Below are positions 1 through 50,745 of a DNA stretch of 64,000 nucleotides, in pieces. A program made the translations under genes and the position numbers. This DNA is from Candidatus Omnitrophota bacterium (GTDB lineage: Bacteria > Omnitrophota > Omnitrophia > Omnitrophales > Aquincolibacteriaceae), in NCBI GenBank assembly GCA_035368605.1, contig DAOSLF010000003.1:889-64888 (forward strand), written 5' to 3'. Within the stretch, counting starts at the first letter, position 1. Every line of letters starts with the position of its first letter. Under the pieces are notes generated by a model. It was not told the DNA's origin and ran no database searches. It saw nothing but the letters and a program-made list of their open reading frames with translations.

Positions 1-3000
1 AATGTGAAGCGCCGGCGCCCGTCTCGGCACGGACAAGTTCTCCGGCCGCGTTATAAGTCATCGTGTAATCCCCGACTTTACATTGAAACCCGAGGAACCC
101 GCCCTCCTCATCCTGCACAATTTCACGCGACGTCCCTTGAGGCAGAGACTGTTCAAACAGCGAACCCTCCGCGAGCCGTCCCCGGACCGGAACGTAATCT
201 TCAATTTCAAGAATCAATCCGTTCGAAAACTGGATCTGCCCGGCTTTGATTCGCTGATCTTCATCAAACACAAGATTGACCGCCGTGGCGCCCGAGGCGA
301 GATGAACTTCGGATCCCTGATCCCCCTCAAAAATGATCCAGGAACCGTCCGGGGCCTGATACCCCTTCAGACTGACAGCCCGAAGACCTGTTTCCGCATA
401 GGCTGCATTCTTATAGTCGCCGGGGTCGGGAACCGCTCCGTCAGGAAGCGTTTGGAAATAATCGGAATATTCATAAAGGTAACCATCCCGGGTAAGATGC
501 TTGATCAGTTTGCCGTCGGCGTCATAAAACCATACCGTCCCGCGTTCATCCGTGATCCGGGTCTCTTCACCTTCATAAGAATACCGGGTGCTGTTCAAAA
601 CACGGTTCCGGTAGGTCAATTCCGCTCCGATGATCTCCTCATCGGAATAAAGGTAGTGAGTCACGATCCCGTTCGGGTCTGCCGAGGTTAAAAGTTTTCC
701 GCCCCTGAACCGGCGGACTTCCCCGCTCACAGGATCCGTGAAAACGGTGATCTCGTTTCCTTCGCTGTCAAACTCATAGGAAAGATCATATTGCCTTCCA
801 TCCGGCTGGATAATCCTCCGGAGCGCGCCGTAGCTGTAACTGACCGCCGGGGACCCGTCCGGGGAAGTATGATCCGGGCCGCCGATACTGATCTCGGCCG
901 AGTTCTCGGAAAATTCATATTCGTTGACGATCCCGTTCGGAAGCGTCACGCGGGTCACCTCGCTTCCGTTCAGTTCAACCCGGGTTCCGTCAAATCTCCG
1001 GAAGGTCACAAGCCGGTTCGCCCCGGCAGTCGTGTCCGTGTGAATCATCCGCGTGGGAATATCCAGATAAGGCAGGAGCCCCGGAAAAGTGAGCGGTGTT
1101 CCGGCGGCAATGGTCGCGCCGACCGAAGAAAGGTTCTCGGCCTCGATCTTGAGATTCCTGATCCGGGAAGCCCGAATACCCGCCTGCTCCTCCCAGAGAG
1201 GCTCTTCAAAAGTTTTCAGGCTCATGTAGGAAACATCCTTGAAATAGACGCATCCTTCCTTTCCCACGCCGTCGCTTTCCTTCACAAGTTCGAGAGTGAT
1301 CTCGCCTTCCAATCCGGCTTTGCCCGCCATGGGGAACCAGAAGGTCCGGTATTCCGGCACCAGGTTTTTCATGCTGAACGCATATAAAGTGTTGTAGCCC
1401 GTTCCTTTTATCTTGAACGTAAAATCCTGGTTCCATGTCATGGAGGGATCCTGCATGAGGGTGACCGACAAAAATCCGTAATCGGAGATCTCGAACGGAG
1501 AGTTTTGATGATTAAAAACCATCCCGAGGACGTGGCTTGTGCTCGTGCTTTGATATTGAAACATAAAATACGCCTGGGAGTCATAGCCGATATCGGCCCG
1601 CCGGGCATAGATCATTTCGCCCTGGGGGTGATCGGGATAACTGAACTCCCCGACGATCGACCCCGGGATCGCGATCACATTCAGCGTTCTTGATATAAGC
1701 TGCGCCCGTTCAGCGGCCCTCTCGGGAAGCATGAGATATTCGAAAAGAGGCATGGAAACGGGCTCGCCTTCCCGCGTAAATTCCGCGTCAACCCCGACAA
1801 CGCGGCCGGCCGCGTCGTAACGATAAACAAGATCCGTGCGGCCATTCCGGAGGGTCTCGACCGCCGTGATCTCGGTCCCCCGGTAATAAAGCCATATGCC
1901 CTCGCCGACACTCACCCGGTTACCCGCGAATTCATCAATATCCATCTCCCTTCCGTCGTTCAGAACCGCATGGGCCCGGATCAGGTTGCCGTCGTCTCCG
2001 AACTCAATCCCCGTAAGAATGGCCTGAGGGGTCGTGATCGAAATGATCCGGCCTCCTTCCATCTGAACCGTGTTCCCGTCCTGAATCATCGTCCGGAGCG
2101 TCCCGTCGGTATTGAAAATCCTCCGGCGGTCATTGTCCTGGATATTGAAGGAATGGATCGTTCCCCGGAGGTCCTGATCGTAGTAAAAACGACCCGTTTC
2201 CAGCTTCCCCCGCGCGAGATCAATGATGAAACTCGCAATCCCTTTTTCATAGAGCACCGTCCGGCCGTTACGAAAAACCCACTTTGAAAGAAGCCCGTTT
2301 TCAAAATACTGAATACTGCCGTCCGCCCGCCGGAGAATGCCGCTTACAAGTTTCCCGGACGAATCGATCGTAAAATTCTCGAGAATTTCCTCGGCATCGC
2401 GAACCCCTCCGCCGAAAGCCTCCGTGACGATCCCGTTCCGGATCAATGTCCTTATCTCCTGTTCGCTTTTACCGAGCATCATCGCCCAGTCCAGCCGGTT
2501 CGTTGTCCGGACCTTGAAGCCGGAAAGCGGTCCGATATAAATTTCTCCGGCAACAGGCTCCCCGTTCGCCGACTGAATGACCGTCGTTATCATCTCCGCC
2601 CTGCCGTCAAGCGGCCGCACCACCGGGATCGTGATGAACTGCCATCCCTGTTTTAGCGGTTCGGTCAGAAAAATATTCCCGGTCCCCTTGAATTCGAACT
2701 TCAGTCGTATGTTTTCCGGCGTGCCGTCACCGACGCGGACGGGAACCGAAAGAAAATCAAAGCGGTCCAGGTCCAGGGGCGCGGCGCTGTACTTGTTCCA
2801 AAGCCCCACAGGATGCTCCGCGTCCAGGAACTGGAACGCTATCTGGCGGACTTCCCCCAATAACGGATCGCGGATCAGTTCGCTTGCCGCGTAACCATGC
2901 AGAGGCGTATAAAAAGCTCCCTGGGAATCCGCCCTGTTGTAAACATCGAGCTCAAAACCTCCCATGAGGGCCCGGCCGAGATCGGTATGCCCCGTCAACA

Positions 3001-6000
3001 AAAGATATTCCTGGATATCCATTTCCCTGAAACTGCCGCCCTCTCCGAACTCGATCGCGCTGTGGTGGAAAGTTCCGTCCGGCTGGCGATAATTGAACAC
3101 ACGACCTTCGCCGAATCTGGAATCAAAAACGTTCGGAATAAAGCTCGGCTGTTTCACAAGGCCGGACATCTTTCCGTCGGGCATAACGCTTCCGCCGTCA
3201 TAAAGCACTTCGACGTTTTCGCCGAACGGGGGCATGGGGAGCGCGGAATCCGTCGCGGGGTTCAGATTCAACAGGAACGATCCGTAGAGGTTGTCGAAAC
3301 GCTCCGCGACACCCCGGTCCATCAGATAGCTCCGCAAATAACCCCGGCTCGTCGTGAGAAGCGAAAGAATGAATGATGCCTGGTCCACACCGAAATACTG
3401 CGACGAAAAAACAGGCTCTTCGGTCGGCAAGATCTCCCCCGTGACGGGATCCGTATGAAGAACGGTTCTTATCGAAAGAGCGTCCACAAAACCCGCTTCC
3501 GTCACGATCTCCGGAAAACTCGTTTCCAGATTCTTGAGAAACTGAAGCGTGTAATGCGGGGCCAGGCCAAAGGCCGAGGCTGTCCCGTAAATTGACCCGA
3601 TATCGCTATGGCGGACATCATCCGCTTCGGCGGCCGCGGGAAGACCGATTTTGCCTTCGTATCCGTACCCGGGATTATCGCCCGCCGACAAAAGGCCGGG
3701 ATTCCCGGTCCCGAAAGCGTATTCGGCCTGCACGTAAAGAAAATTCCGGAGCGCGACATTGAATTCGGGATACCGGGTTTCATCCACGTGGATCAGCGGC
3801 CAGAACATCTGGAAGGTCCCTCCGTCAAACGGCGCCGCGAGTTCGATTGCCCGGCCTTCTTCCGTCAAGTAACGCCGGATTGTGACATCCAGTCCGTCAA
3901 ACGCAGGTTGATACTCGGGGTAATTCGCCGCGAGCCAAACCATGCCCGGGCGAAATTCGTTGAACAGGCGGTCTATATAATAATTGTTAACAAACTCCCA
4001 TTGCCCGGTCTGCGGATTAAGTCCGTAAGCACCCCGGAAACGTTTTTTCACGGAATCATAAAAAGCCGCGTATCCCGCTTCCTGGGCTGTCAGGATCGCG
4101 TTAGCCCGTGCGACAATACTTTCCCGCAGAACCGTCATATCGGGCTCAAGAGAAAGATTTTTTACGGCCCCGAGCACACTCGAAAGGCTGACGGCAAGGT
4201 TCAGCGTGTCTCCAAAACCGTATTGATCGGAAAGGTTTTCGTAACGGTAAGTCTTTATGACCTCCCCGGTTGGCTCCCCGGATTCATCAAGGACCGGCTG
4301 CTCATTTTCAATGATCCTGAAAAAAGCGACCATACCGTTCCATCCCGCCTGACGCTGGACTTCCTGATAGACCGCCAGCAAGGCTTCCAGTTTTTCGAAA
4401 GCCTGTTTCCTTGAAACAAGCGGCGTTTCAAAATCACCGGCCGCGATCGCGGCAAGGATCTCGGCCCAGAAACCCACAAGCGTAGCCTGGCTGTAATCCG
4501 ACTGTTGATCTTCCGCGAGCAGGTAATTATCGAGAGGAAGTCCGGTGCCCGCGTGGAGCCCTTTGCCTTCCGAAAAAAATCCGAGCTGTTTTTCGACCAG
4601 ATACCGCCGGTAAGCGGCTTCGGCGGCCGTCAGAGCCTCCGGAGGGGACGCGGGACCGGGCTCTTGAAATTCGATCGCGTCCGAAAATTCGAGAAAACGA
4701 CCGGACGCGGTAATTTGTTTGACGATCTCATTGTTTTCGATCAGGCATTGGGTCCCGTCACGAAAAAGGATCTCGCCGCTGAAAATATACCCATTCTCAT
4801 CAACCGTCAGTGAACGCAGGCTCGCGTTGGGAAGTTCGATCACGGAAACAAAGTGCTTCCCGGGAAGAAGCTCGGGAACCTCATAGGGCTCGATCCGGAC
4901 CTGTCTGGATTGAACATAACGGACCGGGCGGCCCTGCTCGAATTCGATCCGTCCCCCGCCCGGGAGATCGATCTTTACAAGTTCGGTCAGCCTTTCAGTC
5001 AATCCTTCGCCGTTCGGATAGCGGATCACCCGATAGGTCATTCCGTCTTCCGTGATGAGGCTCTCGGGTTCCCGGCTGTTCCGATAATCGATGAAGATCG
5101 TCCGGACACCATCCGCCCCGATCCGTTCGATCACTTTGGAGTTTCGATAGATCTCTACCTGCCCGTCCGCGGATGTCCTCCTGAAACCCGTCAGGCTGGT
5201 CCCGTTCCAGACAAGCTCCGTTAAAACAGTTCCGTCCGAGAGCACGATACGGTCAAGCGAACTTTCGTCGATACGAAGAAGCGTCCCGTCGCTTAGCCGC
5301 AGGCCCTCCAGCGCGCCCTCCGCGTTATAGATCTGAACCACACCGCTTCCGTCATCCCAGGAAATCGAAAGAAGGTCGCCGTTTTGAGATATCTGATTCC
5401 CGATCGAAACAACCCGGTGATCCGGCCCCGTCAAGGCGACGGGCAGGCCATCCGCAAGCCGCAGAATCTCTCCTTTTCCTGAAACCGTCTGCCGGATATT
5501 TCCCGTCGCGTCGTATTCGATCCGTTCGAGAAGATCATTCTGCAGGGTCTCCCAGGCTTCAGGGAACGCGTCCTTGTTTTGGAGGAAAAGGCCGGGATCT
5601 ATTTCGGTCGAAAAACCCGCCGGCCTGACGGCAATAATCTTCGATAAATAACCCGTAAGATCATGCCCTTCCCGGCTGATACTTGTTTCATAGCGGAAAA
5701 AATCACCGTTCGCATTCCTGTAACCTTTGAGAAATCCGTCTTCATAATAGACCTGGGTCCCATCCGAACGTTTGATCCAGAGCGGTTTTCCCTGATCGTC
5801 ATAGCGGGCGGTGAGGTTCTCTTCAAAACTCAAAATCCCGGTCACGGAGCCTCCATCACCCGACCGGTAGGCGAAATCCGTTCTTTTTGAATCGGAGCCG
5901 AGAACATAGGCCACGGTCCCGTCCTCGTGGTAGATCAACTTCTCCCCCGACGGTTTCTCCAGGCAAACCGGCTTCCCGCCCTGATAAAGCATCCGGTCAC

Positions 6001-8260
6001 CGTTCTGAAAAACAAGAAGCCCTCCCGCGAGATTGTTCCCGGAATCAAATTCCGGAAGGTAAAGCGTATAAACCGAAGGCTGTTCGACCGCCGTCAGCAT
6101 ATCCCCGGCATACTTCAGCACCATGCCGTTTTGCGTGGTTAAGGTTATCGGGTCCGTGCCCAAAACGGGCACTCCGGGCACTTCGGGAACTTCGGGGGCA
6201 TTTTTCCGGAGCATCACTTCATGAGCCAGATAGGTCGAACCGCTTCCCCGGCTGCCGCTGATCAAAAGCTCGTTGAGACCCGGCCGGAGTCTCCAGGTCT
6301 CATTATGAAGCTCTCCGTCCACCGTGTAAGTCAGCGTATAGAATTCCTGATCCGTCAAAGACGGAGACGTCACGACCACAACGGGCAACACCGGGGCCGT
6401 CGTGTAAAAAATACTGTCGGAAAAAACCGTTCTGTTACCGGCCCGGTCCTCGACCTCGCACAAAACCGTTTTTAATCCGTCTCCTCCTTCCCCGGGGATC
6501 TCAACAACCTTGTTCGCTCCGTAAGTCTCCCAATCCGTCCAGCTGGACCCGTCATCCAGTGAAAACCTGACGCTGGCAACCGGGGAAAGATCGTCCTGCG
6601 CCTCGATAAAAAGAGCCAGGGCCCTCGAATCCGTCTCGGCGTCCCCCCTGTTGATCCGTAAACTCCCCCACGGCGGCACCGTATCCAGAAAAATCGTCAC
6701 GGTCTTCGTCGAAGTGCGTCCGAAAATATCGGTCGCGGAAAGAACCACCGTGTTCTCACCTTCCTGCAGGGAATAGCTCCGGGTCCGATCCTTGCCGTCC
6801 ACGGTGTAACGAAGTTCGCAGGAGCTTTCCCGGGTGTAAACCGGCTGTTCGGGTATTTCGATCTCGGGCGGAGTCGTATCAAGGACCCGGCGGCCGTCAT
6901 TGTAAAATTCTTCGACGGAACCTTCTTCGTAAAGGACCTGATAACCGGTGACGGCTTGTCCGTCCGTGATATTCCGGATAATGCTTTTGGCGGGTATCGT
7001 GCTCGCGCGGTCGAGCGCGGCTGTCAGCGATTCGGGGAGAAATGCGCCGCGGCCATAAGACTCGGAGGTCGCCCGGATACTGTAATTCCCGGTCCCGGCG
7101 TTCACGAATACCGGATCGGCCTTCAGATTTCCGGCTGTCTGCGCCGCGGCCGCGGGAGGCGTAGCGCTGCCATAAGCGGTACTCCGTTCCGTATTCTTCC
7201 AAAAGGTATTGTTCTCCACCACGGCATATCCGCGGCCTGGCTGACCGGCGGAGTGGGCGGCCCAGGAGAACTCATAGATCGATGAAAATGTGCTTCCCGT
7301 GAAAATATTATTACAGATCCGGCTCTTCGCTCCGGAAAGGACGTTTATGGCGATATCGTTCGCCACGAAGGTGTTGTACCTGATCACGGTCGTGTCCTTC
7401 GGGAGCTGGACTCCGACATGCGTCATCGAAAAATAATTCATTTCGATCAGCGTATCGGAACCGTTCCGGACATGAATGCCGTAATCCTTGTTAGCCACGA
7501 TCCGGTTATGGCGGATCACAACCCTGTCTCCTTCAACGCGGATCGCAGCGGAAGGAGTCCCCGCGTAAGGGCCGATCCCCGAGATTGTCAGTCCTTCAAT
7601 CCGGTTATTCCCCATCGCGCGAATCCCCTGGATTCCCGTTTCATAATCACCGTGAAGGATCGTCGTATCTGCATTCTCCCCCTGCAAATTCACCCCGGCT
7701 TTCAGAATCAGCCCTTGGGGACACCCAAAGGCGTCGCGTTCGTAATGATAAGTGCCGGAATGGATGAAAAGGGTCGTCCCGGCTTCGGCGTTATCGATCG
7801 CGGACTGGATCGATTGTCCTTCATAGACATGACGGAACATTCTGCCATCCGGAAGTTTTTCCGTTACGATCCGTCCGGATTCATCATAAATATTCTGGTC
7901 CGTTCCCGGACTTTCGGAAAGCGGACCGGCGTTATTAGCGAGGAACTGCGTGGTGGCATCCGCAAGAACCGGTTCATCCGGTGCCGTTGATGAAACATTT
8001 GCCGCCGCGACAACCGGTCGGACCGCGGTGAGATCATAGTCCTGCGACGGAAGACCATCGCACCAGACCGTCTGGTGCCAAACAAGACAGAATACCAGGC
8101 AAAGCGCCACCACTCTGATGGACAGCCGATGCGAGCAGCGGCAGAAACGCTTCGCGAACGCAGGAAGTGGCAAGACTCCCGAAAGAGAAGCCTCCGCTTG
8201 AACCCGCGGCAAGATCATCACATCCCGATCACTTTGGCGTTCGTCGGATATTTTCTTCAT
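1..8260 (-). CDS. Giant secreted multidomain protein, N-terminal >2,750 aa only (C-terminus lies beyond nt 1): signal peptide, parallel beta-helix repeats, Ig-like modules, glucoamylase/GH144-like region, many YD/RHS-type repeats
   Basis: Absent from the ORF track because no stop codon falls inside the window. Hand translation of the minus strand from ATG 8260 (alt ATG 8218) gives MKKISDERQSDRDVMILPRVQAEASLSGVLPLPAFAKRFCRCSHRLSIRVVALCLVFCLVWHQTVWCDGLPSQ... The frame was spot-checked open at nt 7618, 6538, 5278, 4498, 3418, 2338, 1498 and 58. No minus ORF in this frame is listed over 8.2 kb; all listed ORFs here are short shadow ORFs. Motifs: NNRIEGLTISG, VIRHNRIVANKDYGIHV, VIRYNTFVANDIAINV (beta-helix); YRYDAAGRVVGV, YEFDSEGNEI, FYDADGKLI, YDDQGKPL (YD repeats); YFGVDQASFILSLL (GH144/PF10091-like). 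Confidence 0.85.
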   Translation of the reverse strand, partial: MKKISDERQSDRDVMILPRVQAEASLSGVLPLPAFAKRFCRCSHRLSIRVVALCLVFCLVWHQTVWCDGLPSQDYDLTAVRPVVAAANVSSTAPDEPVLADATTQFLANNAGPLSESPGTDQNIYDESGRIVTEKLPDGRMFRHVYEGQSIQSAIDNAEAGTTLFIHSGTYHYERDAFGCPQGLILKAGVNLQGENADTTILHGDYETGIQGIRAMGNNRIEGLTISGIGPYAGTPSAAIRVEGDRVVIRHNRIVANKDYGIHVRNGSDTLIEMNYFSMTHVGVQLPKDTTVIRYNTFVANDIAINVLSGAKSRICNNIFTGSTFSSIYEFSWAAHSAGQPGRGYAVVENNTFWKNTERSTAYGSATPPAAAAQTAGNLKADPVFVNAGTGNYSIRATSESYGRGAFLPESLTAALDRASTIPAKSIIRNITDGQAVTGYQVLYEEGSVEEFYNDGRRVLDTTPPEIEIPEQPVYTRESSCELRYTVDGKDRTRSYSLQEGENTVVLSATDIFGRTSTKTVTIFLDTVPPWGSLRINRGDAETDSRALALFIEAQDDLSPVASVRFSLDDGSSWTDWETYGANKVVEIPGEGGDGLKTVLCEVEDRAGNRTVFSDSIFYTTAPVLPVVVVTSPSLTDQEFYTLTYTVDGELHNETWRLRPGLNELLISGSRGSGSTYLAHEVMLRKNAPEVPEVPGVPVLGTDPITLTTQNGMVLKYAGDMLTAVEQPSVYTLYLPEFDSGNNLAGGLLVFQNGDRMLYQGGKPVCLEKPSGEKLIYHEDGTVAYVLGSDSKRTDFAYRSGDGGSVTGILSFEENLTARYDDQGKPLWIKRSDGTQVYYEDGFLKGYRNANGDFFRYETSISREGHDLTGYLSKIIAVRPAGFSTEIDPGLFLQNKDAFPEAWETLQNDLLERIEYDATGNIRQTVSGKGEILRLADGLPVALTGPDHRVVSIGNQISQNGDLLSISWDDGSGVVQIYNAEGALEGLRLSDGTLLRIDESSLDRIVLSDGTVLTELVWNGTSLTGFRRTSADGQVEIYRNSKVIERIGADGVRTIFIDYRNSREPESLITEDGMTYRVIRYPNGEGLTERLTELVKIDLPGGGRIEFEQGRPVRYVQSRQVRIEPYEVPELLPGKHFVSVIELPNASLRSLTVDENGYIFSGEILFRDGTQCLIENNEIVKQITASGRFLEFSDAIEFQEPGPASPPEALTAAEAAYRRYLVEKQLGFFSEGKGLHAGTGLPLDNYLLAEDQQSDYSQATLVGFWAEILAAIAAGDFETPLVSRKQAFEKLEALLAVYQEVQRQAGWNGMVAFFRIIENEQPVLDESGEPTGEVIKTYRYENLSDQYGFGDTLNLAVSLSSVLGAVKNLSLEPDMTVLRESIVARANAILTAQEAGYAAFYDSVKKRFRGAYGLNPQTGQWEFVNNYYIDRLFNEFRPGMVWLAANYPEYQPAFDGLDVTIRRYLTEEGRAIELAAPFDGGTFQMFWPLIHVDETRYPEFNVALRNFLYVQAEYAFGTGNPGLLSAGDNPGYGYEGKIGLPAAAEADDVRHSDIGSIYGTASAFGLAPHYTLQFLKNLETSFPEIVTEAGFVDALSIRTVLHTDPVTGEILPTEEPVFSSQYFGVDQASFILSLLTTSRGYLRSYLMDRGVAERFDNLYGSFLLNLNPATDSALPMPPFGENVEVLYDGGSVMPDGKMSGLVKQPSFIPNVFDSRFGEGRVFNYRQPDGTFHHSAIEFGEGGSFREMDIQEYLLLTGHTDLGRALMGGFELDVYNRADSQGAFYTPLHGYAASELIRDPLLGEVRQIAFQFLDAEHPVGLWNKYSAAPLDLDRFDFLSVPVRVGDGTPENIRLKFEFKGTGNIFLTEPLKQGWQFITIPVVRPLDGRAEMITTVIQSANGEPVAGEIYIGPLSGFKVRTTNRLDWAMMLGKSEQEIRTLIRNGIVTEAFGGGVRDAEEILENFTIDSSGKLVSGILRRADGSIQYFENGLLSKWVFRNGRTVLYEKGIASFIIDLARGKLETGRFYYDQDLRGTIHSFNIQDNDRRRIFNTDGTLRTMIQDGNTVQMEGGRIISITTPQAILTGIEFGDDGNLIRAHAVLNDGREMDIDEFAGNRVSVGEGIWLYYRGTEITAVETLRNGRTDLVYRYDAAGRVVGVDAEFTREGEPVSMPLFEYLMLPERAAERAQLISRTLNVIAIPGSIVGEFSYPDHPQGEMIYARRADIGYDSQAYFMFQYQSTSTSHVLGMVFNHQNSPFEISDYGFLSVTLMQDPSMTWNQDFTFKIKGTGYNTLYAFSMKNLVPEYRTFWFPMAGKAGLEGEITLELVKESDGVGKEGCVYFKDVSYMSLKTFEEPLWEEQAGIRASRIRNLKIEAENLSSVGATIAAGTPLTFPGLLPYLDIPTRMIHTDTTAGANRLVTFRRFDGTRVELNGSEVTRVTLPNGIVNEYEFSENSAEISIGGPDHTSPDGSPAVSYSYGALRRIIQPDGRQYDLSYEFDSEGNEITVFTDPVSGEVRRFRGGKLLTSADPNGIVTHYLYSDEEIIGAELTYRNRVLNSTRYSYEGEETRITDERGTVWFYDADGKLIKHLTRDGYLYEYSDYFQTLPDGAVPDPGDYKNAAYAETGLRAVSLKGYQAPDGSWIIFEGDQGSEVHLASGATAVNLVFDEDQRIKAGQIQFSNGLILEIEDYVPVRGRLAEGSLFEQSLPQGTSREIVQDEEGGFLGFQCKVGDYTMTYNAAGELVRAETGAGASH

Positions 8261-8427
8261 CGATCAGAAAGATATCCGCGCGAAAGATCAAAGTACACGG
8301 ATTTAAAGCTTAAATTTTTTGGTTCTATCTCATAAGACGATTCATATCGCTTATAAATAGATTTTTGGGGCCGGGCAGCAAAAACCGCTAAAAAAGGATC
8401 AGGGATGGAACGGCGAGAAAGGCAATG

Positions 8428-10272: not shown

Positions 10273-10280
10273 AAAGGTCC

Positions 10281-10330
10281 GAAAAACAAAAACCCGGTAC
10301 CGGCTTTGGCCGGCACCGGGTTTTTTTATT
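10281..10330. terminator. Bidirectional rho-independent terminator between convergent FadL-like gene and gpsA
   Basis: Stem cccggtaccggc (10293-10304) / gccggcaccggg (10309-10320) with one A-C mismatch, loop tttg. T7 run at 10321-10327 and an A-rich run upstream, 10281-10292. Confidence 0.8.
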
Positions 10331-10347
10331 TTGGGAACGATCAGGTC

Positions 10348-30788: not shown

Positions 30789-31013
30789 TCAGGTCTGATT
30801 GTCGCTTTCGGGATTCGTTTTATCGAGTTTCTTGCACACGTCCCTCTTACAGATGCATCCCGTCAACTCCTTCACAATGACGGCCACACCTAGCACGGTC
30901 AGGGCAATCGGGGCCCAGGAGACATTCCACCAGGCGAACACGATCACAAGCACTCCGGCGAGCGCGGAACAGCAACAACACGGACTCTTGTGACTTTCTT
31001 TCTTTTTTTCCAT
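30789..31013 (-). CDS. Small Cys-rich membrane protein (74 aa)
   Basis: ATG 31013 preceded by GGGAGGGGG. MEKKKESHKSPCCCCSALAGVLVIVFAWWNVSWAPIALTVLGVAVIV... has two TM helices, a CCCC run and CICKRDVC. Confidence 0.55.
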   Translation of the reverse strand: MEKKKESHKSPCCCCSALAGVLVIVFAWWNVSWAPIALTVLGVAVIVKELTGCICKRDVCKKLDKTNPESDNQT

Positions 31014-31201
31014 GACCCCCTCCCTTTCTCGGTTAAGCGGCTCAGGCCGGCATCGTCTCACTCATGTTCATGCCGCCCCCTTTCACTTTTATCCACGGGC
31101 ATTCCTTCTGTTGTTTCATTTCTTTCCACTGCTCGGCCGTTGGGATGGCCTTGCGTTCGGCGTCCTTATGGATCGCAATCCACTTGGCCTGCGCCTTGAG
31201 A

Positions 31202-31246
31202 AATGGGGTCAGTCACCATTTCCCTGAAATGGTGACTGACCCCATT
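31202..31246. repeat. 45-nt perfect palindromic (REP-like) element copy 1, likely terminator of the hss-odc operon
   Basis: AATGGGGTCAGTCACCATTT CCCTG AAATGGTGACTGACCCCATT: 20-bp stem, 5-nt loop, 6 nt after the decarboxylase stop. A second copy lies at 46914-46958. Confidence 0.85.
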
Positions 31247-31252
31247 ATTTAT

Positions 31253-32434
31253 TTATACGAGAATGACCTTGGCAGGTTCGAAGCCGTTGAAATTGGGGAC
31301 AGCGCTCGCGCAGGAGTAGGCGCCGATATTCTTGACGTAAACAACATCCCCGACGAACAACTCGGGGAACTCTTCGTTCGATGTGAGGATATCAAGCGAA
31401 TCGCAGGTCGGGCCCGCGATCACGCTCATGGTCTTCTGCCCGCGTCGCAAGGTCTTGAACTCGTACTTGCAGTGATCGAACATCATCCCTGAAAAATCCT
31501 GGTAGATGCCATCATTGATGTAGTAGAAGTTCTTGTTGTCGCGGAAGGCCTTCCCCACCACCTGCGTCACGAGCACGCCGGAGGGACCCGCGAAAAACCG
31601 CCCCGGCTCGGCGATAAAATGAGTGGATTTCGGAAAGAGCTCCTTCATCTGCTTGCGGATCTGCGCGGCCATCCGCTCAAAGTTGATGCCGATCTCGTTT
31701 TCAAAGTGAGGTATCGGGAACCCGCCTCCGATATCGACGATCGAAAGCGGCATGCCGTTCTCTTTGGCCTCCCTGAAAATCCCGGCCGTGAGCTCGAGCG
31801 CCTGCAAATAATTTTCGACGTTCGTCGACTGCGAACCGACGTGAAAGCTCACGCCTTTCGGCACGAGCCCGAGGCTTTTCGCCTTCCGCAAGAGACAAAA
31901 CCCCTGGTCCGGTTCCGCGCCGAACTTAAGCGACAGCTGGACGACCGAGCCGCGGTTCTCGACGCGGATCCTCAAGATCACGTGCGCTCCGGGGAAACTC
32001 TCCGCGATCTTGTAAAGCTCGGCTTCGTTGTCGAAGGTCATGAGCCGGACGCGGCGCTTGCGGGCGGTGACGATATCCTCTTTCGACTTGATCGTATTCG
32101 CGAAGATGATGTGGCTCGGTTTCGCGCCCTGCTTGAGGACGAGTTTCATCTCGGCCGCGCTCGCGACGTCGAAGCAGGCCCCGAGCTTCGCGAAATATTT
32201 GACGATCCGCGGATGCGGATTGGCCTTGATCGCGTAATAAGGCGTCACTTCCGGCAGGGCCTTTCGAAAGCGGTTGAACTGCTTCTCGAGGACACTCTTG
32301 CGGATCAAGAGAAAGGGCGTCTTATGCTTTTTCAGCATTTGCCGGATCAGATTCTCGATACCCGAGGACTCCGTCGGCCTGACCGCCTTGTTTAAAAACG
32401 AAATGCTCCCACTCTCAAGAAGGGGCTGTTTCAT
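31253..32434 (-). CDS. PLP-dependent Orn/Lys/Arg decarboxylase (group IV, ornithine-decarboxylase-like)
   Basis: YYAIKANPHPRIV (PLP Lys), VDIGGGFPI, GPTCDSLD. Lies 6 nt downstream of hss. Confidence 0.85.
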   Translation of the reverse strand: MKQPLLESGSISFLNKAVRPTESSGIENLIRQMLKKHKTPFLLIRKSVLEKQFNRFRKALPEVTPYYAIKANPHPRIVKYFAKLGACFDVASAAEMKLVLKQGAKPSHIIFANTIKSKEDIVTARKRRVRLMTFDNEAELYKIAESFPGAHVILRIRVENRGSVVQLSLKFGAEPDQGFCLLRKAKSLGLVPKGVSFHVGSQSTNVENYLQALELTAGIFREAKENGMPLSIVDIGGGFPIPHFENEIGINFERMAAQIRKQMKELFPKSTHFIAEPGRFFAGPSGVLVTQVVGKAFRDNKNFYYINDGIYQDFSGMMFDHCKYEFKTLRRGQKTMSVIAGPTCDSLDILTSNEEFPELFVGDVVYVKNIGAYSCASAVPNFNGFEPAKVILV

Positions 32435-44976: not shown

Positions 44977-46002
44977 TCAGATGAGCCCCGCACCCTCGGG
45001 GAAACCGAACCGGATGTTCATGTTCTGGACCGCCTGACCGGAGGCGCCCTTTAAAAGATTGTCGATGGCCGTAATGATGACAAGCCGCCCCGTGCGGGCG
45101 TCGAGCGAAACGCCGATGTCGCAGAAATTCGTGTTCCGGACGTCCTTCAGGCTCGGGAACTGTCCCGCAGGCTTGACCCGCACGAACGGGTCCTTGCCAT
45201 ACGCGGTCACGAGCGCCCGCCGCACTTCATCCTCCGTCACCGTCTTTTTGGCGGGCTCGACATAGATCGTCGCGAGAATACCGCGGTACACGGGAAGAAG
45301 ATGCGGGATGAACGTGATCGCAACCTCGCGGCCGGCCGCCAACGAAAGATTCTGCTCGATCTCGGGAATATGCTGGTGTTTATTGACCTTGTACGCGTTG
45401 TAGTTCCCGTCCACTTCGCAGAACTGTGTCGAGGTGACAAGCTTCTTCCCCGCGCCGCTCACGCCGGACGCGGCATTGATGATGACGGGATCATGCTTGA
45501 TAAGCTTCTTCTCCAAGAGCGGAATGAGCGCGAGCGAAGGGCCTGTCGGATAACACCCGGGATTGGAAATAAGCTCGGCCTTCCTGATCTTCTTCCGGTT
45601 CACTTCGCAAAGTCCGTAAACGGCCTGCCGGAGCCGCGCCGGGAACGCATGGTCGATTCCGTACCACTTCGGATAAAGCGTCGCGTCTTTCAGCCGGAAA
45701 TCCGCGGAGAGATCAATCACAACCTTTCCCGCCTGCAGAAACAGGTCCCCGGTCGTCATCGCCTCCGTGTGGGGCAGGCAGAGAAAAACCATGTCGGCCT
45801 TCTTCCTGAGATCTTCAAAATCATACGGGGTGATCTGGAGTTGCACGCCCCTGGGAACGGACGGAAGGACCTCAGAAAGCGGGATCGGCTTTTCCTGCCG
45901 AGTGGTGAGATGAGTGATCCGAACATCCGGATGGGAAAGCAACAACCTCGTGAGTTCAGCGCCTGTGTAACCCGTAGCGCCCAAGACAGCGCAGTTCAAC
46001 AT
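44977..46002 (-). CDS. argC: N-acetyl-gamma-glutamyl-phosphate reductase
   Basis: VLGATGYTG, catalytic Cys context SNPGCYPTG. Confidence 0.92.
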   Translation of the reverse strand: MLNCAVLGATGYTGAELTRLLLSHPDVRITHLTTRQEKPIPLSEVLPSVPRGVQLQITPYDFEDLRKKADMVFLCLPHTEAMTTGDLFLQAGKVVIDLSADFRLKDATLYPKWYGIDHAFPARLRQAVYGLCEVNRKKIRKAELISNPGCYPTGPSLALIPLLEKKLIKHDPVIINAASGVSGAGKKLVTSTQFCEVDGNYNAYKVNKHQHIPEIEQNLSLAAGREVAITFIPHLLPVYRGILATIYVEPAKKTVTEDEVRRALVTAYGKDPFVRVKPAGQFPSLKDVRNTNFCDIGVSLDARTGRLVIITAIDNLLKGASGQAVQNMNIRFGFPEGAGLI

Positions 46003-46058: not shown

Positions 46059-46087
46059 ATTATAGGAATAGCTCTATCCTTTGTCAA
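46059..46087 (-). promoter_or_regulatory. Consensus sigma70 promoter of the arg-lysA operon
   Basis: Minus strand: TTGACA (46087-46082), 17 nt, TATAAT (46064-46059). About a 50-nt leader with AAAGGAGAA before argC ATG 46002. Confidence 0.7.
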
Positions 46088-46175: not shown

Positions 46176-46204
46176 TTGACATTCAGAGGTTAAATCTCTA
46201 TCTT
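46176..46204 (+). promoter_or_regulatory. Putative rnc promoter (near-leaderless)
   Basis: TTGACA (46176-46181), 17 nt, TATCTT (46199-46204). ATG codons at 46205 and 46214 with no SD. Confidence 0.5.
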
Positions 46205-46915
46205 ATGAAATCCATGAAAAAGACACCTCAGATCACCAAGTCCCTTCTCAAGAAGTCATTCGGCCTGACGGTCAAAAAAGTCCCTCTTTACGAAGCCGCG
46301 CTGACACACCCTTCCTTCCGGCATGAAAACCAGATCAAGGCCAAACTCGAGGATTTCGACCGTCTGGAATTTCTCGGGGACTCGATCCTGAACGAAGTGA
46401 TCTGCCAGAGGATCTACGCGGATTTTCCGGACGCCGACGAGGGCATGCTTTCGAAGCTCCGGTCGATACTCGTTTCGCAGAAGATCCTCAGCCGCATCGC
46501 AGCAAAATTCAAGCTTCACAATCTGATCCGGCTCGGGAACAGCCTGGGCCAGGCCATGAAAACGCCGTATAAATTCAAACTGATGACAGACTCGATGGAA
46601 TCGATCTTTGCGGCGGTCTTTTTCGATCTCGGCCGGAAAAAAACGGAGGCATTCATCCTGAAACATTACGCGGAATATATCGACGCCAAACGGCTATTCC
46701 GCCTTGATCCCAACCCGAAGAGCACGCTCCAGGAACTGACGCTCAAGAAATGGCAGAAACTTCCCCAATACACCCACAAGTTCGGTCCGAAAGGCGTGAC
46801 TACGACAGTGTCCATAGACCGCCGGCGCAAGGCTTCGGGATTTCACAAGATCAAGAAGGAATCGGAGCTGAAGGCGGCACGGGCCCTTCTGAAACTTCTC
46901 CGGCAGGAACAATAA
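46205..46915 (+). CDS. rnc: Ribonuclease III
   Basis: AALTHPSF...ERLEFLGDSILN signature and a C-terminal dsRBD. The start is ATG 46205, or 46214 if the mRNA is leaderless. Confidence 0.9.
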   Translation: MKSMKKTPQITKSLLKKSFGLTVKKVPLYEAALTHPSFRHENQIKAKLEDFDRLEFLGDSILNEVICQRIYADFPDADEGMLSKLRSILVSQKILSRIAAKFKLHNLIRLGNSLGQAMKTPYKFKLMTDSMESIFAAVFFDLGRKKTEAFILKHYAEYIDAKRLFRLDPNPKSTLQELTLKKWQKLPQYTHKFGPKGVTTTVSIDRRRKASGFHKIKKESELKAARALLKLLRQEQ

Positions 46916-46958
46916 TGGGGTCAGTCACCGTTTCCCTAAAACGGTGACTGACCCCATT
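46914..46958. repeat. 45-nt perfect palindromic (REP-like) element copy 2, bidirectional terminator between rnc and asmA
   Basis: AATGGGGTCAGTCACCGTTT CCCTA AAACGGTGACTGACCCCATT. It overlaps the rnc TAA stop and ends 3 nt before the asmA TAG stop. It differs from copy 1 by a compensatory A-T to G-C pair. Confidence 0.85.
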
Positions 46959-46961
46959 ATT

Positions 46962-49445
46962 CTAATCCAGAACGAGTTCGAAAAGGAGAGCGCGGGCTTT
47001 TTTGTTCCGGATCTTTTCGACGAGTTCTTCGACTTGCGCGGGGTCCGGTTTGATTTCGGGAGCGGATAAGGGGCCCGTGACCAGCATCGTGATCGGCCCC
47101 AGATGGGCACGCGTTTCCCTCCGAAAGGTTCCAGCCATCTCCGGAAAAATCTCCGCGGCAAGGGTCGTCGGAAAAAAAACATCCCACCGGAAATTCGTCA
47201 GGCCATCGAAACCAAGCGTACCTTCCCCAGCCACGACATAATCGGAACCCCTGGTCAGGAAGTTATCCGTCATGACCTTGCCGTCGAACAGACTCCAATT
47301 GAAATCCAGTTCGCTGAACGCGCCCGGGTCTTTCAACCGTTCACGGATACCGGAGAAAGGCGTAATAGTCGCCACAGCGCCGGGCAGATCAATGAAATTG
47401 ACCCGGCCGTTCGAAAGAGTAAAACGACCCTTTCCGCCGAGCAAACCAGCCCAGTTGTCTTTCCCCCAGCCATTTCCATGCAATGAGAACTTCAGGGTAA
47501 GCGATCCCGTCATCGGCGGCTGTTCCTGGCCCGAGCGGGTCAGAAAGGATGCAAAGTCCAGCCCCTTGGCCTCGCCTTCACAAAGGTACCCGATCGGTTT
47601 GGCTGAAAGGTCCAGCGACCCCGCCAGATCCAGCATTCCGCCATAAACCTGGGCGTGGAACTTGGGAACATCCCATTGCCCGTCCGAATAAGCCAGTTCC
47701 GCCGAAAAATCCTTGAGCGTCTGCCCCGAGGGGAACAAGTCTCCGATCGAGGTCTTCACATGGTCGAGCACGTCCCTGCCGGAGGCGAGATCGGCCTTTT
47801 TCCGGAAAAGCGCCATGACCGCGTCCCAGAATTCTTCCACTCGCAATTCCCCCGAAGAAAGACGGGCCCAGACCGCACTCTTCACACCCGGCTGGGTGAC
47901 CTTCAGGTCCGCGACCAGAGCGCTCCCTCCGATCTCGAACTTCATCTCCCGCCCTTCGAGCATGAGCGGGCTGTAATCGAAGGAAAAATTCGCGTTCCCG
48001 ACGCCCTTGCCGTCCTTGCCCGTCAAAGCGCCGTTCTCGATCGTCACATGAAAGATCTGCTCGGTCTTGTCAAAATGCCGGAGGTCCCCTTTCCAGTTCG
48101 CAAGCAACTTGGCATCACCGCGGACCTGGTATCCCTGGAGGGCGGGAACGAATTTCTCCCAGCCCGTCATGGAGAATTTGTTGGTCAGGAGATTCAACTG
48201 GCCGATGGCCGTCGCCATATCAAGGTCGGTCAGGTTCCCTTTGAGCGACATCTCCTGGAACCGCACGGAGAAATCTCCCGAAAGCACCGATCCCTTTTGG
48301 ACAAGATAATCAAAGGTCACGAGGAACGGAACATCCTTTGGCTTCGCGAAATAATTCCCGTATGTAAGAAGCGCAGGGCCGAAATCGAGATTAAGGTGGA
48401 GCGAAAGATGATCGAGGGTTCCTTCCAGGCTCAGGTTCCATTGGCTCATCCCCGAAAAACCAATCTGGAGCGGGAGGGCGTTCTCGACTCCGGGCCAGCA
48501 GGTGACGAGCTTTTCAAGCGCCACTTCCCTGGATGTAAAAAAGAGGCTTGGAATCTCACCCGTCCCGAGCTTGACGGTGCCGTTCGACTCGACCACCCCG
48601 AACGGGAAACGGAAAGAGGATTGGCTGACGGTCAGTTCCTCTGCCGACGCATTCCAGGCGCCGGTGATGTCCATATCGAGATCAAAAGGTTCCGGAGCAT
48701 TCCATAGTTGGCCGTTCAAAACCTCATAACTCAGCCCCACGATCCGCCCGGTCCCCGAGAAATTCATCGCGGCAACCTCGGGCTGTTTTTTGACCTCAAA
48801 GGAACCGTCCAGGATACCGTTCTTGAAAGCAAAAAAACGTCCCGCCTCACCCGCCATTTTTCCGGGGTTCACAAGCGGAAGTCCCTTGAAATCGATCAAT
48901 AACCGGACATTCGTTTTATTCCAGTCCGGTTTTTCGACCGACGGAATGACCACATGGCCTTTGACGCCAAGCGCTTCGGCCCGGTCACCGACATCGCTGG
49001 TCATCTGGACCGGGATGGGAAGGTTCGGGCGGATCGCACCCATTTTCAGCGCGACGTTGCGGAACTGGAGCGGACCGAGCACCGGGAACCAGGGAATGCC
49101 GGCATCAGCCTGGCCGCCGAAGACACAGATGCCGGACGGCTCAACCCTGCCCCACGCCATCGGGATGATATTGAAATCAAAACGTATCGAATCCGCGCGG
49201 ATCGTCGCGGATCCGTCCGTGAACGTCAGGGAAGGTTTCAAGAGAGAAATGGCCGGCTGCGGAAGGAATTTGATCTCGATCCCGTCATGGGAGACGAGCC
49301 CGCCGGAGACATTCTGGATTTTCTGGATGAGATAATCCTGAACCCTGGGCGAGCGGAGGAGACGATCGGACTGGAACCAGACAAAAGCGGCAAAGGCGAC
49401 CGCGGCGAGGAAAAGTAACAGGAAAAAGCGTGCGCCTTTCTTCAT
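46962..49445 (-). CDS. AsmA-family outer-membrane biogenesis protein
   Basis: N-terminal anchor MKKGARFFLLLFLAAVAFAAFVW. AsmA-like N-terminal (IEIKFLPQPAISLLKPSLTF) and C-terminal (DGKVMTDNFLTRGSDYVVAGEGTLGFDG) regions. Confidence 0.7.
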   Translation of the reverse strand: MKKGARFFLLLFLAAVAFAAFVWFQSDRLLRSPRVQDYLIQKIQNVSGGLVSHDGIEIKFLPQPAISLLKPSLTFTDGSATIRADSIRFDFNIIPMAWGRVEPSGICVFGGQADAGIPWFPVLGPLQFRNVALKMGAIRPNLPIPVQMTSDVGDRAEALGVKGHVVIPSVEKPDWNKTNVRLLIDFKGLPLVNPGKMAGEAGRFFAFKNGILDGSFEVKKQPEVAAMNFSGTGRIVGLSYEVLNGQLWNAPEPFDLDMDITGAWNASAEELTVSQSSFRFPFGVVESNGTVKLGTGEIPSLFFTSREVALEKLVTCWPGVENALPLQIGFSGMSQWNLSLEGTLDHLSLHLNLDFGPALLTYGNYFAKPKDVPFLVTFDYLVQKGSVLSGDFSVRFQEMSLKGNLTDLDMATAIGQLNLLTNKFSMTGWEKFVPALQGYQVRGDAKLLANWKGDLRHFDKTEQIFHVTIENGALTGKDGKGVGNANFSFDYSPLMLEGREMKFEIGGSALVADLKVTQPGVKSAVWARLSSGELRVEEFWDAVMALFRKKADLASGRDVLDHVKTSIGDLFPSGQTLKDFSAELAYSDGQWDVPKFHAQVYGGMLDLAGSLDLSAKPIGYLCEGEAKGLDFASFLTRSGQEQPPMTGSLTLKFSLHGNGWGKDNWAGLLGGKGRFTLSNGRVNFIDLPGAVATITPFSGIRERLKDPGAFSELDFNWSLFDGKVMTDNFLTRGSDYVVAGEGTLGFDGLTNFRWDVFFPTTLAAEIFPEMAGTFRRETRAHLGPITMLVTGPLSAPEIKPDPAQVEELVEKIRNKKARALLFELVLD

Positions 49446-50713: not shown

Positions 50714-50745
50714 AATGACCCCGAACCCGAAGGTCCGGGGTCATT
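50714..50745 (-). terminator. Stem-loop terminator candidate after the 1,380-aa gene
   Basis: AATGACCCCGAACC-CGAA-GGTCCGGGGTCATT (14-bp stem, one G-U) 30 nt past the stop. The U tract is poor. Confidence 0.5.

Follow-up and report, generated by a model that had tools for sequence, protein, structure and literature searches.

A hairpin between the convergent rnc and asmA genes of a Candidatus Omnitrophota bacterium is very probably a copy of a dispersed REP-type repeat

Introduction

Palindromic extragenic repeats located at the 3' ends of genes are characteristic of the REP/REPIN-RAYT system ('REPtron') described in E. coli and Pseudomonas. Classical REPs are imperfect palindromes of 20-40 nt with an unpaired GT[AG]G tag at the foot of the hairpin. 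They are concentrated between convergent and unidirectional ORFs, and their termini often supply stop codons (PMC3733652). In E. coli, REPs lie mostly between convergent or tandem genes. They stabilise the mRNA that precedes them, have an attenuating effect on transcription and go along with higher expression of convergent gene pairs; they also provide a precedent for a role as terminator or stability element (bioRxiv 10.64898/2026.03.23.713779). A related arrangement, called TIRYT or 'TIRtron', was described for genomes without GTAG REPs, in which repeats with the motif GGGGWSAS flank Y1 transposases (Di Nocera, De Gregorio and Rocco 2013, PMC3733652). Some of these TIRs are self-complementary and make up families of moderate abundance; the published examples are from Acidobacteria, Stenotrophomonas and others, not from Omnitrophota (PMC3733652). 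Our literature search found no publication linking Omnitrophota with RAYTs or REPINs. A third system is relevant if such a hairpin is located at the gene for RNase III: the known autoregulation of this enzyme in E. coli acts on a hairpin in the 5' UTR (PMC3867540).

Here we analyse a palindrome located between rnc and a convergent asmA gene in a 64-kb stretch of DNA from a Candidatus Omnitrophota bacterium of anaerobic digesters. This whole stretch is called the window, and window positions refer to it. The original prediction had described the palindrome as a REP-like element that could act as a symmetric bidirectional terminator or RNA-stability element, and had raised the possibility of RNase III autoregulation. 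We find that the palindrome belongs to a family of dispersed repeats which, in two Omnitrophota populations, brackets a gene for a REP-associated tyrosine transposase (RAYT), so that the label 'REP-like' now stands on firmer ground.

Results

The rnc gene (window 46205..46915, + strand) encodes an RNase III of 236 aa with matches to the Pfam families Ribonuclease_3, Ribonucleas_3_3 and dsrm. Its start was placed at ATG 46205 according to public gene calls, which were used throughout instead of a greedy longest-ORF gene map that is unreliable in this genome of 57% GC. A very long ORF (>2754 aa, - strand) occupies window 1-8263 and runs off the window start. The convergent neighbour of rnc (46962..49445, - strand) encodes an AsmA-family protein of 827 aa (Pfam AsmA, 32.1 bits versus a cutoff of 29.8). 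On the + strand, rnc appears to be monocistronic and is flanked by - strand genes.

The gap between the two genes is occupied by a REP-type palindrome (copy 2, 46911..46961, no strand assigned). Inspection of the sequence and a repeat finder agree on two arms of 23 nt with 100% complementarity, AATAATGGGGTCAGTCACCGTTT at 46911-46933 and AAACGGTGACTGACCCCATTATT at 46939-46961, which enclose a 5-nt loop (CCCTA) at 46934-46938. The core sequence of the family described below, GGGGTCAGTCACC, is found at 46917-46929, and its complement, GGTGACTGACCCC, at 46943-46955. As predicted, the stop codon of rnc (TAA 46913-46915) overlaps the 5' arm, being located wholly within it, and the arm coordinates confirm that the 46-nt convergent spacer is hairpin throughout. 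The extent of the hairpin had been understated: the predicted element at 46914-46958 is real and corresponds to the ~20-bp part in common with copy 1 (see below), but the palindrome is 3 nt longer on each side, and the duplex, described as perfect over 20 bp, is indeed perfect but measures 23 bp. The predicted gap of 3 nt between the 3' arm and the asmA TAG does not exist, since this stop codon (cta at 46962-46964) directly adjoins the right arm. On both sides, stop codon and stem are contiguous or overlap (distance of 0 nt or less). Two further features were considered and rejected: the flanks are inverted, as part of the palindrome, and not direct repeats, so that they do not represent a target-site duplication, and the element provides stop codons in only two frames, not in all three. 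A 19-mer of the arm has four matches in the window versus 0.01 expected by chance; beyond copies 1 and 2, neither further copies nor solitary half-sites were found in the 64 kb. The window contains no match to Rfam families at gathering thresholds, and no tRNA or tmRNA gene was found in it.

The exact rnc protein was found in 12 contigs from metagenomes of anaerobic digesters and in two NCBI MAGs, and the named rnc homologues are from Candidatus Omnitrophota. The gene order argC(-) / rnc(+) / asmA(-) / rpsI-rplM(-) is common to all contigs with the exact protein. In all ten independent assemblies with an identical rnc protein, the hairpin is present at rnc, and it is identical in 8/10 contigs. 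The other two, L003 (5706-5760) and L010, are from the same species and carry an allele with three mismatches in one of its arms and an inverted loop (TAGGG instead of CCCTA). Because these alleles are imperfect, a perfect duplex is not fixed even within the species. Two of the three arm mismatches match copy 1 and other copies; the allele may have arisen by flipping mediated by the hairpin or by an exchange between copies, or may represent an assembly chimera at repeats.

Upstream of argC (44977-46002, - strand) and divergent from rnc, the window contains a perfect σ70 consensus promoter (TTGACA-17-TATAAT, 12/12 matches) at 46059-46087 on the - strand. A promoter-like sequence, TTGACA-17-TATCTT, is found at 46176-46204 and ends immediately before the rnc ATG at 46205. 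If real, this site would leave no room for a 5' rncO hairpin of the E. coli type. The rnc transcript may be leaderless, or translation may start at ATG 46214.

Copy 1 of the palindrome (31202..31246, no strand assigned) has perfect arms of 21 bp and a CCT loop. It is located at the 3' end of a gene for an Orn/DAP/Arg decarboxylase-family protein (31253..32434, - strand, 393 aa), 6 nt past the stop codon, inside a co-directional array consisting of the decarboxylase gene, a 74-aa ORF, dapF, dapA and dapB. Copy 1 is identical in nine strains, and the site is empty in L087, a relative with an 88%-identical decarboxylase. Between copy 1 and the 74-aa ORF (30789-31013, - strand), the segment 31014-31201 (- strand) contains a coding-like open frame of ~50 codons that emerges straight from the REP arm without a start codon. 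Both this segment and the 74-aa ORF are missing in L087.

The two copies in the window are members of a dispersed family, which we define by two inverted arms of the form (A/T-rich)-GGGGTCAGTCACC-(A/G/T)TTT around a loop of 3-5 nt. Genomes (one per species) were scanned with the pattern GGGTCAGTCACC-N7-19-GGTGACTGACCC, and the exact core pair was found at 18 genome loci and 34 metagenome loci. Omnitrophica bacterium RIFOXYB12_FULL_50_7 alone contains 12 exact-core copies in both loop orientations and one compensated core variant. Its copies have the inner stem and loop of the window copies and AAAG...CTTT flanks, with A-tracts and T-tracts. In addition to the two copies in the 64-kb window, four more are located on contigs that resemble the window in composition (L039, L042 and two on L081). 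A scan of viral contigs for the family pattern, which addressed a phage origin, gave 0 matches.

An alignment of 28 distinct copies showed paired bases in 90% of the cells, with an invariance of the core that partly follows from the exact-match pattern by which most rows were retrieved. Nevertheless, the core contains three independent compensatory double substitutions (T-A to G-C in L065, T-A to A-T in L081, and T-A to G-C at another position in L025_1499). A mismatch at one inner position is found in 13/28 copies, so that many members of the family are imperfect, as REPs usually are. The flank consensus, AA[T/A]AA[A/T]G followed by GGGTCAGTCACC, is symmetric on both sides, and an unpaired 5' tag (GT[AG]G / CGTC) at the foot of the hairpin was looked for in this consensus and is not present. 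Every copy contains GGGGTCAG, which fits GGGGWSAS exactly. A literature search with the exact core returned unrelated PCR primers only.

The basal 12-13 nt of this core, (G)GGGTCAGTCACC, were also observed in hairpins with unrelated apical stems and loops from Solirubrobacterales, Chloroflexia and Deltaproteobacteria MAGs and from soil metagenomes (L011, L018, L020, L021, L022, L035, L036, L045, L046, L049, L052 and L057). Some of these hairpins form multi-copy families of their own, with three copies, for example, in a Solirubrobacterales MAG. Such matches are weak evidence alone, because, roughly estimated, chance should produce a few 12-mer matches to natural hairpins in 600 Gb. Pure chance is less likely in view of the extra G (GGGG), which is found in 8 of about 10 unrelated hairpin classes, and of the published GGGGWSAS motif. 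The core may represent a recognition motif (GGGGWSAS) common to one transposase clade, or be partly coincidence.

The copies are usually located 2-10 nt past the stop codons of unrelated genes; those preceding the element include the decarboxylase gene, radC, the transposase gene itself and rnc. In most copies, the stop of the adjacent long ORF lies 5-13 nt upstream of the core, within the A/T-rich outer palindrome. Copy 2 is placed between convergent genes, copy 1 between tandem genes. At position -5, an enrichment of T was observed (28/56 arms). A fixed stop-codon phase was rejected as a rule, since the stops of real genes are found at -5 to -13 without any single phase.

In RIFOXYB12 (loci L025, L029 and L043), two copies ~700 bp apart bracket an ORF of 226 aa (L029 321-1001). 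This protein matches Pfam Y1_Tnp (E 3.5e-12) and the NCBIfam model NF047646, 'REP-associated tyrosine transposase', with 83.8 bits (cutoff 80), compared to 20.9 bits for the IS200 model (cutoff 55). It contains an HUH motif (PNHFHFV) and a tyrosine motif (LRYVEANP). Its last residues, KRGQSPFP, and its stop codon, the TAA of the loop, are encoded by the arm and loop of the downstream repeat.

A second RAYT, P0241, is a 67%-identical orthologue with the same radC-RAYT-HAD synteny as in RIFOXYB12; the second RAYT scored 78 bits on NF047646, against the cutoff of 80. Among solved structures, the best match to P0241 is E. coli TnpA_REP (PDB 4ER8, E 7e-5), compared to E values of ~0.5 for IS200-type chains. 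The gene is preceded, 18 nt before its ATG, by the compensated variant GGGGTCAGACACC...GGTGTCTGACCCC, and a hybrid copy whose right arm, GGTGACTGACCCCATTATT, matches the window copies lies over its stop codon. On L081, the RAYT ORF (3001-3669) enters the left arm of the downstream repeat and stops at a TAA within this arm. The last 6-8 residues of the RAYT ORF are thus encoded by the repeat in two species (L029, L081). Moreover, the C-terminal tails of the closest RAYT homologues translate their own REP variants (KRGQSPFP, KGVSH..VTDPFI and KRGQ[ST][PLQ]F), and this correspondence indicates co-evolution of enzyme and repeat.

The contigs with P0241 (L081-L086) come from the same samples as the species of the window, have a GC content of 55.7% and show a tetranucleotide correlation with the window of r = 0.93, compared to 0.45-0.86 for other Omnitrophota loci. 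From the shared samples, the composition and the repeat subtype, we infer that the L081 RAYT locus belongs to the genome of the window. No RAYT gene is located in the 64-kb window, and a tblastn search run with the RAYT against the window and the compared loci did not reveal a second RAYT. A weak match at 31156-31224 (E = 2.8) was rejected as a RAYT, since it is the REP arm, which also encodes the tail of the enzyme.

We compared the rnc-asmA junction in 10 species, the window included. Synteny is conserved, the spacer is variable, and the element is present in three species (3/10, window included). It is absent in the two closest relatives, L063 (79% rnc identity, spacer of 26 nt) and L064 (75%, 21 nt). 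Besides the window (100%, 46 nt), it is found in L065 (68%, 47 nt), with a compensated core GGGGGCAGTCACC...GGTGACTGCCCCC, and in L067, which is of the RIFOXYB12 type (65%, 56 nt). Other species without the element include L066 (67%, 13 nt), L070 (66%, genes overlapping by 4 nt), L069 (65%, 40 nt of unrelated sequence) and L068 (64%, 9 nt). No other long duplex was found at the rnc 3' end of the seven species lacking the element. The spacer of L069 (3727-3766) opens with TAAAGGGGGATTCAGCCTGTCCCCTT, which could be a degraded remnant of this repeat or an unrelated small hairpin.

Each rnc-site copy has the flank subtype of its own genome (AATG...CATT in the window, AAAG...CTTT in RIFOXYB12), which points to recent independent insertion or to concerted evolution. 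No precise empty site with alignable flanks was found in the relatives, where the intergenic regions are too diverged to align; the occupied sites may reflect insertion or an ancestral presence followed by loss. An occupancy of 3/10 would be nothing unusual if a REP were present at 12-30% of convergent junctions; for E. coli, the cited figure is ~30%. At 12-30% junction occupancy, the binomial probability of at least 3 occupied sites among 9 relatives is ~0.08 to 0.54, a value that overstates the association, since the element was observed in 2/9 relatives and the third species is the window itself.

The prediction of a very stable hairpin in both transcripts is borne out by RNA folding. In an 86-nt context, copy 2 has predicted folding energies of -43.4 kcal/mol (+ strand) and -48.1 kcal/mol (- strand), compared to about -18 to -21 kcal/mol for shuffled controls (z of -9.0 and -8.5, respectively). 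In a terminator scan, only the - strand (asmA side) passed a simple rule. The tail on the + strand (rnc side), UAUUCUAA, has 4 U in 8 and is below this rule, so that a G+C-rich stem followed by a U-tract, as expected on both strands of a bidirectional terminator, was found on the - strand only. Of the proposed 'symmetric bidirectional terminator or stability element', the general role is plausible by analogy with E. coli REPs, but the scan does not bear out a symmetric termination. The window also contains a unique canonical terminator-like hairpin with A-tract, GC stem and T-tract between convergent genes (10279-10334) and a unique UUCG-tetraloop hairpin after a 1380-aa gene (50714-50745); because of these, the host appears to use ordinary, non-repeat terminators as well.

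A perfect 23-bp stem corresponds to about two helical turns, which is the size class cut by bacterial RNase III. Cleavage of the duplex by this enzyme is thus plausible for every transcribed copy, judging from its dimensions, and nothing ties such cleavage specifically to rnc. A structure that is both specific to the rnc transcript and conserved with it, as an autoregulatory operator would be, was not found, the element being present in 3/10 species.

Discussion

The Omnitrophota element resembles the REP/RAYT system in several respects. It is a palindromic extragenic repeat at the 3' ends of genes, it brackets a single-copy Y1/HUH transposase that matches NF047646 and has 4ER8 as best solved relative, and RAYT and repeat co-vary. 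The radC-RAYT-HAD synteny conserved in two species is expected for vertically inherited RAYTs (PMC5581495). The differences concern the hairpin and the enzyme: the element is a long, symmetric hairpin with arms of 21-23 bp, perfect in the window copies, unlike the short, imperfect classical REPs, it has no unpaired GT[AG]G tag at its foot, and the RAYT is ~220-226 aa long with a conserved C-terminal extension (...GLESTLRPRGRPKK), compared to 165 aa in E. coli. In structure, position and transposase association, the family thus agrees with REP/RAYT systems, and it differs from them in the tag. With the TIRYT repeats it has in common the flanked Y1 transposase and GGGGTCAG as a fit to GGGGWSAS. 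It differs from them in that the Omnitrophota RAYT gene is flanked by complete palindromes on both sides and not by single arms. The hairpin would also be, like E. coli rncO, a double-stranded RNA structure within the rnc transcript, but rncO is a dedicated operator in the 5' UTR, whereas the Omnitrophota hairpin is located at the 3' end and is a generic repeat that is not conserved with rnc.

We therefore consider it very probable that the hairpin at rnc is a copy of a REP/REPIN-type dispersed repeat of Omnitrophota, spread by a RAYT, and that its position beside rnc is incidental. The repeat would be generated and spread by a single-copy Y1/HUH RAYT of the 'TIRYT' GGGGWSAS type, which would recognise the folded hairpin in single-stranded DNA. 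Copies would persist where they are harmless, that is, directly past stop codons in short 3' intergenic spacers. If transcribed, copy 2 would place a 23-bp hairpin at the 3' end of both the rnc and the asmA mRNA, where it would probably block 3'-5' exonucleases; it may also take part in termination, for which the asmA strand makes a better case than the rnc strand. A generic role of the element as 3' stabiliser or terminator is plausible on these grounds.

The autoregulation suggested by the original prediction would require that RNase III cuts the 23-bp duplex at the end of its own transcript, removes the protective hairpin and thereby lowers rnc expression in a feedback loop. The stem is of a size that RNase III can cleave (review, PMC3867540), the window shares the element at the 3' end of rnc with L065 and L067, whose rnc is only 65-68% identical to its own, and rnc appears to be monocistronic. 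Its 5' leader would be very short or missing, provided that the promoter-like site at 46176-46204 is genuine. But the same element follows unrelated genes, so that any cleavage would be generic. It is absent from seven of the ten species, including the two closest to the window (79% and 75% rnc identity), which have no long duplex in its place; as far as can be judged from sequence, this is the outcome that the original prediction itself had named as speaking against the idea. The two same-species alleles with three mismatches in one arm (L003, L010), an occupancy that is not unusual at junctions of which 12-30% hold a REP, and the 5'-UTR location of the known autoregulation point in the same direction. 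We regard rnc-specific autoregulation as very unlikely. The same low probability applies to a variant in which cleavage by RNase III is the reason why the window, L065 and L067 have kept a mobile hairpin at the 3' end of rnc, resulting in a negative-feedback loop via the 3' UTR. If this were true, RNase III would police all transcripts that end in the repeat.

A brake at the level of translation has somewhat more in its favour, and we still consider it unlikely. In this scenario, the terminating ribosome would have to melt the stem, which could result in stalled termination, tmRNA tagging and mRNA decay. Such an effect has been reported for REPs of E. coli that are no more than 15 nt away from a stop codon (Liang, Rudd and Deutscher 2015, PMC4427526, cited after PMC5082802), most family copies are located within 13 nt of a stop, and at copy 2 no nucleotide separates stop and stem on either side. 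However, a placement close to stop codons is equally expected from compact spacers and purifying selection against insertions elsewhere, and such a brake is compatible with the hairpin being a REP-type repeat. It is hardly credible, by comparison, that the hairpin arose in place as a locus-specific bidirectional intrinsic terminator and is neither a repeat nor a mobile element. The convergent site, the terminator-like - strand and the A-tract and T-tract flanks of RIFOXYB12 copies would fit such an origin, but the family data contradict it: nearly identical sequences are found at many unrelated loci in several genomes and bracket a transposase gene. Furthermore, other convergent junctions in the window have unique canonical terminators (e.g., 10279-10334), and the U-tract on the + strand fails the rule.

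The interpretation of the hairpin as a RAYT-spread repeat would extend REP/RAYT systems to the Omnitrophota, an uncultured phylum of small cells, in an untagged variety of the GGGGWSAS type. It would also offer a clear case of a repeat that varies together with its transposase and within which the transposase ORF terminates. For the annotation of these genomes, it serves as a warning that long, perfect hairpins abutting stop codons are family repeats and not gene-specific regulators, and it would explain the tendency of contigs of these MAGs to break near repeat sites. Finally, the 13-nt core at the base of unrelated hairpins in other phyla hints at a common DNA recognition code of one RAYT/TIRYT clade.
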